Shown here: positions 1,618-58,880 of the stretch, piece after piece
How positions within the stretch are numbered: the first letter of the stretch is position 1
How the letters are laid out: every line of letters begins with the position of its first letter
Assembly (NCBI GenBank): GCA_018064365.1
Contig: JAGHVJ010000006.1
Coordinates: 2,058-66,057, forward strand
Direction: 5' to 3'
Length of the DNA stretch: 64,000 bases
Origin: Candidatus Enterousia onthequi
GTDB taxonomy: Bacteria; Pseudomonadota; Alphaproteobacteria; Rs-D84
Made by a program: the position numbers and the translations under genes
Notes under the pieces: generated by a model
Seen by the model: the letters and a program-made list of their open reading frames with translations, nothing else
The model's database searches: none
Told to the model about the DNA's origin: nothing

Positions 1618-4278
1618 ATGAGTCAAAAATGGGTCTATACTTTCGGTAATGGTTCTGCCGAAGGTCGCGCCGATATGCGTAATTTGCTTGGTGGCAAAGG
1701 TGCAAATTTGGCTGAAATGAATTTGGTCGGTTTGCCTGTGCCTGCGGGATTTACTGTCACAACAGATGTTTGTACATATTATTATGAAAACGGTCAAACA
1801 TATCCGTCTGATTTAATGGACCAAGTTCGCAGCGGTGTTGCGCATATTGAAAATATTATGGGTAAAAAATTTGCAGATATGGAAAACCCATTGTTGGTTT
1901 CTGTGCGTTCTGGTGCACGTGTATCTATGCCGGGTATGATGGATACTGTTTTGAATCTGGGTTTGAATGATGAAACAGTAAAGGCATTGGCGAAACATTC
2001 TGGTAATGAAAGATTTGCGTATGATTCTTATCGTCGTTTTATCATGATGTTCTCTGACGTGGTGTTGGGTGCCGACATCAATTTGTTTGAACACAAATTA
2101 GAAGAAATGAAAGAATCCAAAGGATACAAAGTCGATACAGAATTGACTGCCGATGATTTGAAAGAATTAGTGGAACAATTTAAAACAATCGGTAACGAAA
2201 TTGGCAAAGTATTTCCACAAGACCCATGGGAACAATTGAAATTGGGAATTGGTGCTGTATTTGGTTCTTGGATGTCTAAAAAGGCAATTACATATCGTAA
2301 ATTGAATAATATCCCTGGTGATTGGGGAACGGCTGTGAATGTCCAGGCAATGGTGTTTGGAAATTCTGGCGATGATTCTGCCACAGGTGTTTGTTTCTCA
2401 CGCGATCCGGCAACTGGCGAAAATAAATACTATGGCGAATATTTAATCAATGCCCAAGGCGAAGACGTTGTTGCGGGTATTCGTACACCACAACCGATGA
2501 GTAAAGATGATTCTGGTCGTGTGTCTTTGGAAGAAGCAATGCCAAACGTTTATAAAGAATTGTGTGATGTTCGTGAAAAATTAGAAAAACATTACAAAGA
2601 TATGCAAGATATGGAATTCACAATCGAACATGGAAAATTGTGGATGTTGCAGTGCCGTAATGGTAAACGTACTGCGGCTGCGGCTGTGCGTATGGCTGTT
2701 GAAATGGTGAACGAAGGTTTGTTGACCAAAGAAGAGGCAATCTTGCGCGTTGGTGCCGACCAATTAAATCACTTGTTGCACCCAATGTTGGATCCAAAAG
2801 CAGACAAGAAAGTTATTGCAACAGGATTACCGGCATCCCCAGGGGCCGCAGTAGGCCAGGCCGTGTTTAATGCCGAAGATGCTGAAAAATGGGCATCCAA
2901 TGGTAAAAAGGTTATGTTGATTCGTGTTGAAACATCGCCCGAAGATATCGCCGGTATGAATGCCGCCCAAGGTGTAATTACGGCGCGTGGCGGTATGACA
3001 TCTCATGCAGCTGTGGTTGCGCGTGGTATGGGAACACCATGTGTATCTGGGTCTAATGATATTAAAATCGATTATGCAACAAAAACAATGTCCACAACAT
3101 CTGGTGTTGTGATACACGAAGGCGATTGGGTGTCTATTGATGGCGCACGTGGCGAAATTATCGCTGGGGCTGTACCAACAGTATCTGCATCATTGACAGG
3201 TAATTTTGGAACATTGATGGGCTGGGTTGATGAAATCAAAGTTTTGTCAGTCAAAGCAAACGCAGAAACGCCAAAAGACGCAAAACAAGCCCGTGATTTC
3301 GGTGCCCAAGGTATCGGATTGGCTCGTACAGAACATATGTTCTTTGACCCATCGCGTATCCAAGATATGCGTCAAATGATTTTGGCAGATGATGAGGCTG
3401 GACGTCGTGCGGCATTGGATAAATTGTTGCCATATCAACGTGCCGACTTTATAGAATTGTTCAAAATTATGGATGGTTTGCCGGTCACAGTTCGTTTGAT
3501 TGACCCACCTCTACATGAATTCTTGCCACATACAGAACCAGAAATGCAAGAATTGGCGAATCATATTGGCAAAACTTTGGAATTCGTAAAAACTCGTTCC
3601 GAAGCTTTGCGTGAATCCAATCCAATGTTGGGACATCGTGGTTGCAGATTGGCGATTACATACCCAGAAATCTGTGAAATGCAAACACGCGCAATCTTGT
3701 CTGCTGCAATAGAATGCAAAAAGGCCGGTATTCGTGTGTTCCCAGAAATCGAAGTTCCATTGGTTGGTTCTAAAAAAGAAGTCGATATTGTAAAAACGGT
3801 TATCGATGCAACGGCCCAGGCGTTATTTGCAGAAACTGGCGACAGTGTTGAATACACGGTTGGTTCAATGATTGAATTACCTCGTGCTGCTGTTTTGGCA
3901 AATGAAATCGCAGAAAGTTGTGAATTCTTTGAATTTGGAACAAACGATTTGACACAAACAACATTGGGTATGTCGCGTGATGATACTGGTAAAATCTTGG
4001 ATGAATACCGTGCGCGTGGCGTTTATGTTGCGGACCCATTTGCGTCTGTTGATCAATTGGGTGTTGGTCTATTGATACAAGATGCTGTGGAAAAAGCACG
4101 TAAAACCAAAGGCGACAAAATCCATTTGGGCGTTTGTGGTGAACATGGTGGCGATCCTGCATCTATTGAATTCTTCCATAAACTAGGGTTTAATTCTGTA
4201 TCATGCAGTCCATTCCGTGTGCCAATTGCACGCCTTGCGGCGGCCCAAGCGGCGGTTAAATTCCCACGCAAAAACTAA
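1618..4278 (+). CDS. ppdK: Pyruvate phosphate dikinase
   Basis: Starts MSQKWVYTFGNGSAEG. Contains GGMTSHAAVVARGMG (phospho-His region) and a PEP-utilising C-terminal domain. RBS AAAGGAG lies upstream. ~887 aa. Confidence 0.95.
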   Translation: MSQKWVYTFGNGSAEGRADMRNLLGGKGANLAEMNLVGLPVPAGFTVTTDVCTYYYENGQTYPSDLMDQVRSGVAHIENIMGKKFADMENPLLVSVRSGARVSMPGMMDTVLNLGLNDETVKALAKHSGNERFAYDSYRRFIMMFSDVVLGADINLFEHKLEEMKESKGYKVDTELTADDLKELVEQFKTIGNEIGKVFPQDPWEQLKLGIGAVFGSWMSKKAITYRKLNNIPGDWGTAVNVQAMVFGNSGDDSATGVCFSRDPATGENKYYGEYLINAQGEDVVAGIRTPQPMSKDDSGRVSLEEAMPNVYKELCDVREKLEKHYKDMQDMEFTIEHGKLWMLQCRNGKRTAAAAVRMAVEMVNEGLLTKEEAILRVGADQLNHLLHPMLDPKADKKVIATGLPASPGAAVGQAVFNAEDAEKWASNGKKVMLIRVETSPEDIAGMNAAQGVITARGGMTSHAAVVARGMGTPCVSGSNDIKIDYATKTMSTTSGVVIHEGDWVSIDGARGEIIAGAVPTVSASLTGNFGTLMGWVDEIKVLSVKANAETPKDAKQARDFGAQGIGLARTEHMFFDPSRIQDMRQMILADDEAGRRAALDKLLPYQRADFIELFKIMDGLPVTVRLIDPPLHEFLPHTEPEMQELANHIGKTLEFVKTRSEALRESNPMLGHRGCRLAITYPEICEMQTRAILSAAIECKKAGIRVFPEIEVPLVGSKKEVDIVKTVIDATAQALFAETGDSVEYTVGSMIELPRAAVLANEIAESCEFFEFGTNDLTQTTLGMSRDDTGKILDEYRARGVYVADPFASVDQLGVGLLIQDAVEKARKTKGDKIHLGVCGEHGGDPASIEFFHKLGFNSVSCSPFRVPIARLAAAQAAVKFPRKN

Positions 4279-41331: not shown

Positions 41332-41338
41332 TCCATAA

Positions 41339-41362
41339 CCGGTGCAAAGCACCGGTTTTTTA
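41339..41362 (+). terminator. Rho-independent terminator
   Basis: CCGGTGC-AAA-GCACCGG followed by TTTTTT. Confidence 0.8.
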
Positions 41363-41411
41363 TTGTCGCATCGGTAGTATGACGGGGCAAAATAGTGTAA
41401 AAAAGTGTCGG

Positions 41412-41429
41412 AAAAAACCTAGGTTTTTT
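41412..41429. promoter_or_regulatory. Perfect palindrome AAAAAACCTAGGTTTTTT (copy 1), preceded by GTGTCGG
   Basis: Read directly from the sequence. The same unit recurs at 41530..41547. Confidence 0.5.
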
Positions 41430-41529
41430 GACAAGTGTTTTTTTTAGTTTTTTTCAATTTTTTTATTTTTTAGTTTTCTCGCAAAATCAACCACTTATAA
41501 AATCCGGGCTTCGCGCGGTGTGGTGTCGC

Positions 41530-41555
41530 AAAAAAACCTAGGTTTTTGGTATACT
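41530..41555 (+). promoter_or_regulatory. Palindrome copy 2 (AAAAAAACCTAGGTTTTT) overlapping an extended -10 promoter TGgTATACT
   Basis: TG at 41547-48 and TATACT at 41550-55. The palindrome spans -36..-19, consistent with an operator. Confidence 0.45.
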
Positions 41556-41618
41556 GTTTGCAAAGGGAAAAAACTAAGGAAATCCAAGGAAAAATTAAAA
41601 TGCTGAGAGAGTAAAAAA

Positions 41619-42581
41619 TTGTCTAAAAAACACATTTTTTTAAGAGTTTTTTCGAGAATCACAATTTTGGTGTGTGTTTTTTGTGCATTTTTCATCTCGC
41701 CTGTGTTCGCCACTTTGCCGGCCGGTTATACCGAGTTGGAATATATCGAATCCACCGGTACACAGTATATTGATACGGGACAAATGTTTTTGTTTGGTGA
41801 TGAGTTTTATTTTGAGTATATGCAAATTAAAAGTGTATCAACGGAAAACAAAGGTTATGGTGCGGGTGTTGATCTTTCTAGTAACATTACTTGTGGAGGT
41901 CGTAAAAAGGGTGACATTGTAGGGATGTATACGTTAGCTAGCAATACTTATTACAGTCCAACATTGAGTTATCAAGATTCTTTAAACAAACATTATACCG
42001 AACAATGGAAAATATCAGAAGGAACTTTAGTTTCTGTTTTAACAGAGGTTGGTACAGATAATATATATACTTTTTCTGCTGCCAGAACTGGTTTTAATTC
42101 AAGTTATACATCTGGTAATACTGTTTATTTGTTTAGAGATCATAGTTCGCTATATGATTACTATAGCGCGACAAGATTGTATCACACGTGGTTACGTCGT
42201 CAAAATGGTACGTATGTCTTTGATTTTATCCCTGCTAAACGTGATTCCGATAATGAAATTGGTATGTATGATACTGTGACTAATACTTTCTTTACTAATA
42301 AGGGGACTGGTGATTTTATTGCTGGGCCGGTGGCAGAAATCAAAATTGCAACAACAAAAATGGTTGATGAAGAATTTAAGGCGGCGGAGGACCAGTTGGC
42401 GGCGACGGTTCAAACAATTGAAAGTGTTGTATCTCGCACGATTGCCCAAACCGAACAAATCCAGATATTACAAGACACCAAACAAACGCGCCCCGACGAA
42501 TCATGTCCTGCAAACACGAAATGCTTACTGGTTCAAGACGAAGACGGCACCCCACATTGGTACCCAATCATCGAACCATAA
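41619..42581 (+). CDS. Secreted hypothetical protein (TTG start). Tyr/Thr/Ser-rich with a C-terminal coiled coil.
   Basis: Signal peptide ..ISPVFA. N-terminal LPAGYTELEYIESTGTQYIDTG motif. Confidence 0.55.
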   Translation: MSKKHIFLRVFSRITILVCVFCAFFISPVFATLPAGYTELEYIESTGTQYIDTGQMFLFGDEFYFEYMQIKSVSTENKGYGAGVDLSSNITCGGRKKGDIVGMYTLASNTYYSPTLSYQDSLNKHYTEQWKISEGTLVSVLTEVGTDNIYTFSAARTGFNSSYTSGNTVYLFRDHSSLYDYYSATRLYHTWLRRQNGTYVFDFIPAKRDSDNEIGMYDTVTNTFFTNKGTGDFIAGPVAEIKIATTKMVDEEFKAAEDQLAATVQTIESVVSRTIAQTEQIQILQDTKQTRPDESCPANTKCLLVQDEDGTPHWYPIIEP

Positions 42582-42672
42582 AATTCTTTTGGTCGGGAAT
42601 ATTTCCGGCTTTTTTATTTGCTTTTGTTATGTGTTATTGCTATATTTTTTGCGTTATGACAAAGGGGAAAAT

Positions 42673-58400: not shown

Positions 58401-58880
58401 ATGAGACGCGAAGAAAAATCAGATTTGATTTCAGCGTTGCAGTCGTCCTTGAAATCTGCAAACGGTGTTTTCGTTGTTGAAAACCATGGTTTGACAGTAC
58501 GCGAAATGGAAACATTGCGCAGTGAATTGCGCCCATTGGTGTCATTGTTCAAAGTTGTTAAAAACCGTTTGATGAAGTTGGCTTTGGCCGACACAGATTT
58601 CGCACCTGTATCCGACATGATGAAACGCCCAACTGCGGTTGCGATTGCAACAGATGCGTTGGCGGTTACCAAAGTTTTGGCCAAATTTGCTGATGAACAT
58701 CCGAATTTGACAATCGTTGGTGGAAAAATGGATGCGGATGTATTGGGTGTGAACGACATTGTGCAATTATCCAAGCTTCCTTCCCTGTTGGAAATCCGCG
58801 GCACTATTGCGCGTATTTTGGTCGAACCTGCATCGCGCTTGGCACGTGTTTCCGCAGAGTATGGAAAAAAAGAAAATTAA
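58401..58880 (+). CDS. rplJ: 50S ribosomal protein L10
   Basis: Position and length; the conserved N-terminus is typical. Confidence 0.9.
   Translation: MRREEKSDLISALQSSLKSANGVFVVENHGLTVREMETLRSELRPLVSLFKVVKNRLMKLALADTDFAPVSDMMKRPTAVAIATDALAVTKVLAKFADEHPNLTIVGGKMDADVLGVNDIVQLSKLPSLLEIRGTIARILVEPASRLARVSAEYGKKEN

Follow-up and report, generated by a model that had tools for sequence, protein, structure and literature searches.

What is the function of two perfect copies of one palindrome that lie some 119 bp apart, directly upstream of a gene for a secreted protein? This question is raised by a locus of Candidatus Enterousia onthequi, an alphaproteobacterium of the order Rs-D84, on a stretch of 64,000 nucleotides of contig JAGHVJ010000006.1 that was analysed here as a whole and is hereafter called the window. 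A first-pass annotation of this DNA had taken the palindromes, which are centred on CCTAGG, for an operator pair at which a dimeric repressor would act by looping. Our analysis points to another answer. Judging from the sequence of the palindromes and their homologues, a serine DNA invertase of the Hin/Mpi type most likely uses them as its crossover sites. The feature as a whole is most probably best explained as an inverton of this kind, i.e. as a new representative of a known class, from a lineage for which the literature searched described neither this site nor any inverton of Rs-D84 or Enterousia.

The exact 16-mer AAAAACCTAGGTTTTT occurs just twice in the window, at 41413-41428 and 41532-41547, as established both by reading the sequence and by a pattern search in which the third-best match had 3 mismatches. 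Likewise, the two occurrences of CCTAGG in the 64 kb are both those within the AAAAACCTAGGTTTTT copies. In their context the copies read GTGTCGG-AAAAAACCTAGGTTTTTT (41405-41429) and GTGTCGC-AAAAAAACCTAGGTTTTT (41523-41547), where GTGTCGG (41405-41411) and GTGTCGC (41523-41529) precede the first and the second palindrome, respectively. Including the A/T runs, the perfect palindromes span 18 nt at 41412-41429 and 16 nt at 41532-41547, so that the duplicated palindrome of 16-18 nt, its flanks and its spacing of ~119 bp were all re-found where they had first been reported. One and the same pair was returned by the repeat finder in two forms, namely as a direct repeat with a start-to-start distance of 119 bp, and as inverted arms of 17 nt that are 100% complementary and have 101 nt between them, which is the arrangement of flanking inverted repeats that characterises invertons. 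Since the base composition (GC ~0.39) leads one to expect only ~6e-5 exact copies of AAAAACCTAGGTTTTT in 64 kb, the pair is far beyond chance. Over the whole window, the tetranucleotide CTAG is itself some 10-fold rarer than composition would predict (21 observed vs 226 expected). One near-match, AAAACCATGGTTTG at 58480-58493, differs by 1 mismatch from the relaxed pattern; it lies inside the gene for ribosomal protein L10 and was judged a chance occurrence. No helical phasing of the A-tracts is claimed, as the power was highest at 12 bp, the limit of the range tested, and the control by mononucleotide shuffling is a weak one.

Each palindrome can be read as the centre of a 26-bp site that consists of two 12-bp half-sites around a 2-bp core, as in the hix sites. 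The features of the locus are then as follows:

41408..41433, no strand: site 1, predicted 26-bp hix-like crossover site, TCGGAAAAAACC TA GGTTTTTTGACA, with the core TA at 41420-41421
41527..41552, no strand: site 2, predicted 26-bp hix-like crossover site, CGCAAAAAAACC TA GGTTTTTGGTAT, with the core TA at 41539-41540
41422..41538, no strand: predicted invertible segment of 117 bp between the core dinucleotides; homologous segments are inverted in relatives
41429..41434, minus strand: -35-like hexamer TTGTCA at the inner edge of site 1, of inferred role, placed 18 bp upstream of TATACT by in-silico inversion
41547..41555, plus strand: extended -10 element TGgTATACT (TGGTATACT), outside the invertible segment and overlapping the outer half of site 2
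41605..41611, plus strand: GAGAGAG, a motif resembling a ribosome-binding site, conserved in the leaders of the gene family
41619..42581, plus strand: TTG-start gene for a secreted protein of 320 amino acids from a large paralogous family (open reading frame, signal peptide and homology)

The resemblance to hix extends to the sequence. According to the site table of the Din family, hixL is TTCTTGAAAACC AA GGTTTTTGATAA and gixL is TTCCTGTAAACC GA GGTTTTGGATAA (PMC3241671). The window sites share the central AAAACC-NN-GGTTTT with hixL, which means that the central 14 bp are equal save for the core dinucleotide. Overall, the window half-sites agree with hix half-sites at 7-10 of 12 positions, the right half of site 2 being identical to the hixL half-site at 10 of the 12. 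The core is where the two differ: hix-type sites have an asymmetric core, whereas the TA of the window sites is self-complementary, and sites of the window clade therefore lack a polarity of their own.

To see how widely the motif is distributed, the exact 16-mer AAAAACCTAGGTTTTT was sought in one genome per species, which returned at least 107 stretches. Most of the stretches listed hold one hit each and come from unrelated taxa. The rumen metagenome-assembled genome (MAG) RUG13870 is different, with at least 8 copies of the 16-mer at no fewer than 7 loci, and at least 7 complete modules on 4 contigs; the motif search that the first-pass annotation had proposed for defining a regulon thus marks a multi-gene set in relatives. 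The matches listed also include at least 2 loci in RUG14746, at least 1 locus in RUG774 (with 2 copies 107 bp apart) and at least 1 locus in each of two Ca. Enterousia MAGs. In a conserved order, the module runs from site 1 through ~100 bp of spacer to site 2, after which come a TATAAT-like hexamer, a leader that ends in GAGAGAG, and the start codon. In relatives, the genes downstream of the modules belong to the protein family of the window gene, and in related rumen and gut Alphaproteobacteria of the order Rs-D84 the module also precedes a gene for a YadA-type adhesin.

When 20 two-site modules from relatives were compared, the core-to-core distance was 107-111 bp in 18; it is 131 bp in L096, a locus of another Enterousia MAG, and 119 bp in the window. 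Once all modules had been set in one orientation, AAAAAACCTAGGTT in site 1 and AAAACCTAGGTTTTT in site 2 proved invariant in all 17 aligned modules, while the spacer has diverged except for two short blocks. Comparing the intergenic region with relatives, as had been suggested, yielded conserved site cores. The window sites are identical to those of distant relatives at 16 of 16 positions, with a spacer that is only ~68% identical. The predicted invertible segment of the window (41422..41538) is rich in T-tracts and holds the conserved blocks TTTTTT.AAA and GTAAAA.CAAT, which could be accessory sites. Still more distant relatives of the module have CCAAGG at the left and CCTTGG at the right, so that, like hix, they have an asymmetric AA/TT core arranged as an inverted pair. 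Not every family member has the module: P0002, the closest homologue from the MAG MJ164 and itself a TTG-start gene (locus L001), has no CCTAGG site upstream. Instead of sites, L001 has at 2760-2990 a leader of ~200 nt that contains hairpins, ends like a terminator and has no Rfam match.

The invertase reading is supported by homologous modules in which the DNA between the sites occurs both ways round. Between two paralogues of RUG13870, L084 and L073, the flanks align on the plus strand with 88.7% and 94.3% identity, but the middle 129 nt align on the minus strand with 85% identity. The junctions in L084, acggtcgA7CCTAGGT7agaccg and gttgcttttaaaCCTAGGTTTTTTgtata, are those expected if the usual arrangement undergoes a crossover within CCTAGG. 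In RUG14746 (L032) and RUG774 (L058), where the module lies between a gene for an adhesin with a YadA anchor and a divergent gene for a 200-amino-acid protein, the orientation of the spacer is opposite in one vs the other. The same is observed within species. L192-L195, which encode the identical protein P0121, show one state, and L032 and L109, with a 99-100% identical protein, show the other, the two groups aligning over 136 nt on the minus strand with 95.6% identity. Similarly, within the group of contigs that share the identical protein P0155, 9 contigs share one orientation and L208 has the opposite one, its 123 nt matching L200 at 100% identity on the minus strand.

Three side observations concern these loci. 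Four contigs from different samples (L196-L199) end, within their first 2-20 nt, at the recombinase-proximal CCTAGG site or no more than ~15 nt from it; this suggests a branching of the assembly graph at the inverted repeat, with repeat copy number as another possible cause. In L200-L209, ~100 nt upstream of the gene that follows zapA, a poly-G run precedes the start codon, mostly of six G and of eight in L201, and this variation may possibly reflect either a slipped-strand switch or an assembly error. The variable gene starts downstream of the P0155 recombinases were considered as well and are not invertons.

These data also bear on the view that the palindromes act as an RNA hairpin or terminator, or that they are a chance repeat of low complexity, for which their palindromic and A/T-rich sequence could be adduced. 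The folds of the palindromes are weak (-7.7 and -7.3 kcal/mol, with z of -1.3 and -1.0, against a z of -3.9 for the terminator at 41337..41357), the terminator scan is silent on them, and no Rfam match was obtained at gathering or permissive thresholds. Moreover, it is the sequence itself, beyond any pairing, that is invariant across genera, and a chance origin would have to contend with the ~6e-5 expected copies. The conservation and the inversion data already refute this view, and its probability is next to nil.

A second line of evidence for an invertase is provided by the gene that adjoins the module in relatives. The divergent 200-amino-acid protein beside the module in L032, L058 and metagenomic loci has Resolvase and HTH_7 domains and is named 'DNA invertase Pin-like' by JGI. 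Among solved structures, the Gin invertase is its best match (E 5e-12) and ranks above the Tn3 and gamma-delta resolvases. Against NCBIfam NF009949, the 'master DNA invertase Mpi family', the recombinase of L032, which is that of a relative and not of the window genome, scored 269.2 bits (E 2e-80), just under the cut-off of 272. Identity across the best 120 hits of this protein ranges from 76 to 99%, and just one type of recombinase was seen. More distant homologues (~60% identical) on human gut contigs adjoin a different segment flanked by inverted repeats. In these contigs, L173-L187, that inverton lies at ~2230-2460, has the inverted repeats AAACCACCGTTTA and TAAACGGTGGTTT and occurs in both orientations across samples; between L173 and L175 this human-gut segment aligns over 147 nt on the minus strand with 100% identity.

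Against this background the operator pair of the first-pass annotation can be weighed. In that model a helix-turn-helix dimer binds each palindrome, the DNA loops, and RNA polymerase is blocked at the -10 element without any rearrangement. Several observations are in keeping with it: the dyads are perfect, the second one overlaps the promoter spacer, with its centre ~23 bp ahead of the likely start of transcription, and the motif is common to many genes in relatives. However, static dyads would not have homologous segments that are inverted with the exchange exactly at the core, the only conserved adjoining DNA-binding protein is a serine recombinase, with no regulator gene found nearby, and the sites resemble hix and gix. 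A static operator pair predicts none of these, neither both orientations nor an adjoining recombinase nor the likeness to hix and gix. We therefore favour a serine invertase over a looping repressor, because the segments are inverted in homologues with exchange at CCTAGG, an Mpi/Gin-like recombinase is their neighbour in relatives, and the sites match hix and gix. The operator model is very unlikely, although a good part of what had been proposed survives: the palindromes are conserved protein-binding dyads that work as a pair, the second overlaps the core promoter, and the factor that acts on them is encoded elsewhere. What has to be replaced is the kind of protein and the outcome of its binding.

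How the proposed invertase would control the gene can be outlined in steps. Each 26-bp site, with its A-tract half-sites around CC-TA-GG, would be occupied by one dimer of a small Mpi/Hin-Gin-like serine invertase. We infer from the relatives that such a recombinase is present in the window genome, encoded elsewhere in it, and that it is active at the window locus. After synapsis of the two dimers, cleavage at the central TA and strand exchange would flip the 117 bp between the cores. The TGgTATACT element would stay fixed, and the -35/UP region just upstream of it would be swapped, such that inversion would put TTGTCA 18 bp upstream of the fixed -10 in place of TCGCAA. In the assembled orientation it is the weak -35 TCGCAA that faces the -10. 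The hexamers equivalent to TTGTCA in other modules are TTGACT in L058 and L208, TTGATT in L032 and TTGCAA in L049 and L064, and the promoters compare as follows:

Window, inverted spacer (in silico): TTGTCA-18-TGgTATACT, against TCGCAA as assembled
L058, inverted spacer (in silico): TTGACT-17-TAACAT
L032, inverted spacer (as found): TTGATT-17-TATACT
L208, inverted spacer (as found): TTGACT-17-TACCAT
L064, single-site 'locked' promoter: TTGCAA-18-TGgTACACT

The -10-like TGGTATACT and the TTG at 41619 are present where the first-pass annotation had placed them, and a TA.A.T element is conserved at the -10 position in all modules aligned. A generic sigma-70 scan did not report the promoter proposed there. 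When the spacer is inverted in silico, the window, L058 and the adhesin-type modules gain a better -35; our own count of -35/-10 matches separates the orientations in some modules only. The window copy would probably be OFF, because the assembled -35 is poor (TCGCAA) and TTGTCA comes to lie 18 bp upstream of the -10 only after inversion; we consider the chances that the split-promoter step and this OFF state are correct to be about even. The comparison further suggests that the split promoter is complete only in the rarer orientation, in which case most RUG13870 copies would be OFF too. In L064 (4300-4400), from a Ca. Enterousia MAG, a gene for a secreted protein is preceded by just one CCTAGG site, the inner '-35' flank of which is fixed beside TGgTACACT, and a terminator hairpin is found at the position expected for site 1; this looks like a locked promoter.

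The start of the gene itself could be assigned by comparison. The starts of paralogues align to the same codon after the same GAGAGAG, this codon being mostly ATG but TTG in L105, L124 and L001, and because the paralogues begin at the same aligned codon, TTG 41619 is the homologous start, as had been suspected. The NCBI protein MBP9999318.1 of 304 amino acids starts at ~41667, 16 codons downstream of this TTG, and its signal peptide is therefore truncated and has lost its charged start.

Several points weigh against an active inverton at this locus. No other assembly of the exact window locus was found in either orientation: a metagenome scan for the exact site 2 plus leader of the window gave no match, and exact-protein look-ups of the window gene (320 and 304 amino acids) and of P0011, P0031 and P0022, its paralogues in the Ca. 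Enterousia onthequi MAG KBT14, returned no record. The 64-kb window contains no homologue of the 200-amino-acid recombinase, in line with the earlier remark that no regulator is adjacent. The TA core is symmetric, the outer flank GTGTCG is a direct and not an inverted repeat in the assembled state, and 119 bp from core to core leaves very little room for synapsis. With respect to the promoter, the extended -10 may allow some expression in either state, and in the RUG13870 family modules the two states are not separated by simple -35 scoring (TCGAAA vs TTGCTT); because these modules do not discriminate, the ON/OFF assignment is uncertain. Lastly, three contigs of the same species (L189, L190 and L191) lack the whole cassette in which the module resides.

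The absence of a recombinase from the window would also be expected if the element were a relic, i.e. if the invertase had been lost from the genome, the segment had become frozen and the palindromes now served only as promoter spacer. The frozen single-site version in L064 and the reduced genomes of these bacteria (PMC12306168) would fit such a history. However, both sites are perfect and agree at all 16 positions with those of distant relatives while the spacer retains only ~68% identity, which argues for continuing selection on the sites. In addition, the two-site module is also present in the Enterousia MAG of L096, and 7 of the 16 listed KBT14 family genes are 'partial', as would be expected for repeated or heterogeneous DNA. 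A relic is therefore improbable, albeit the least improbable of the alternatives to a functional inverton.

The variable presence of the cassette raises the further question whether the palindromes serve the insertion and excision of the gene. The relevant features are:

41365..42604, plus strand: strain-variable cassette of ~1.24 kb with upstream flank, both sites, leader, gene and terminator, absent in L189, L190 and L191
41337..41357, plus strand: intrinsic terminator of the upstream ppiD-like gene, a 9-pair stem followed by a T run (-14.4 kcal/mol, z -3.9), just outside the cassette
42591..42610, plus strand: terminator of the family gene at the right cassette end (terminator scan)

In the three contigs without the cassette (L189 at 3913-4001, L190 and L191), which belong to the same species according to an identical LspA and 96-98% nucleotide identity, ppiD is joined directly to lspA. 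A symmetric TA core permits, in principle, deletion besides inversion. Yet the cassette ends, at ~41365 and ~42604, lie at neither site but in a duplicated terminator tail, CCGG(C)TTTTTTATT, which is carried by both ends, and the empty site is without CCTAGG. With its ends away from the CCTAGG sites, the cassette is probably moved by something other than the invertase sites, and an integration role for the palindromes is extremely unlikely. The loop of the ppiD terminator hairpin was observed to be reverse-complemented between strains, being ccggtgCAAAgcaccgg in the window (41339-41355) and ccggtgCTTTgcaccgg in the empty-site strains (L189, ~3925).

The gene order around the cassette is a gene for a PpiD/SurA-like chaperone, the window gene, lspA, yidC and lpxD. 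The window protein has no Pfam or NCBIfam match but more than 1,100 homologues, including ~16 paralogues in KBT14 and many in the related MAG MJ164; the 7 'partial' genes among the 16 listed for KBT14 are cut by contig ends. In an AlphaFold model (pLDDT 68), residues ~35-237 form a beta-sandwich and residues 251-286 a long helix, followed by a small hairpin at the C-terminus, and a fold search with this model of moderate confidence gave weak matches to beta-sandwiches of the galectin/pentraxin type. The C-terminal ~85 residues (~238-320; DNA 42330-42578) show 83-90% identity between paralogues with differing N-terminal domains, and contain a coiled coil and a CPxxxKCLLV...HWYPI motif with two invariant cysteines. 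The product may plausibly be a surface or secreted binding protein.

As the same module precedes many paralogues, one invertase acting in trans would phase-vary the whole family, together with the YadA-type adhesin. Taken to its furthest, this leads to a minimal split-promoter inverton of ~117 bp with symmetric TA-core sites, in which one Mpi-like invertase drives a one-or-few-ON antigenic variation of a large lectin-like surface family whose cassettes are gained and lost between strains. This fuller picture is tentative, with the odds somewhat against it, and we would say the same, with similar reserve, of the corollary that the ~117-bp segment is among the shortest substrates of serine invertases. 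The order Rs-D84, to which Enterousia belongs, comprises uncultured gut Alphaproteobacteria with genomes of <1 Mbp that are presumed to depend on a partner (PMC12306168). If the picture holds true, minimal and probably partner-dependent gut genomes still invest in programmed surface variation, which would point to proteins that mediate attachment or evasion. The motif A(4-7)CCTAGGT(4-7), in pairs 107-131 bp apart, would provide a simple means of listing phase-variable genes in these MAGs and may also explain contig breaks at such loci. Finally, how serine invertases achieve synapsis and confine themselves to inversion would be put to the test by such very short segments and their symmetric cores.

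Among the known systems is Mpi, the master DNA invertase of Bacteroides fragilis. This small serine recombinase works in trans on numerous short invertible promoters that lie scattered in front of genes for surface molecules. The present system is similar in that the recombinase of the relatives is near the NF009949 cut-off and that the relatives carry at least 7 modules per genome. It differs in several respects: the host is an alphaproteobacterium of Rs-D84 and not a member of the Bacteroidota, the score lies just under the curated cut-off, the site is a hix-like A-tract-CCTAGG-T-tract, the segment is ~105-117 bp long with the -10 apparently outside it, and the targets are a lectin-like secreted family and a YadA-type adhesin instead of capsule loci.

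With Hin/hix, Gin/gix, Cin/cix and Pin/pix the system shares the 26-bp site in which a 2-bp core separates two 12-bp half-sites. For the recombinase of the relatives, Gin is the nearest protein of solved structure, at a modest similarity (E 5e-12), and relatives of the window module use AA/TT cores, as does hix. The classical systems of the Din family invert 1-3 kb with whole genes or a whole promoter and need a Fis-bound enhancer. In contrast, the segment described here measures ~117 bp, the window core is a symmetric TA, and the recombinase gene lies outside the segment and not near the window module. There is a precedent for symmetry in hixC, a synthetic and fully symmetric hix site that still inverts promoter fragments of 200 bp (PMC2427008). 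Like the window sites, hixC combines a symmetric crossover site with a short promoter fragment; unlike them, it was engineered and has a reported 16-fold slower inversion rate, whereas the window sites are natural and conserved. As for length, the Hin invertasome contains HU-assisted loops of ~100 bp (PMC3798978), and a segment of ~117 bp is therefore short yet not implausible. Similar in layout are the invertons of gut bacteria, as catalogued with PhaseFinder and DeepInverton, in which inverted repeats bound a short segment beside a gene for a surface protein, with an invertase nearby (PMC11602134). The same layout is seen here, and the human-gut loci L173-L187 were found in both orientations.

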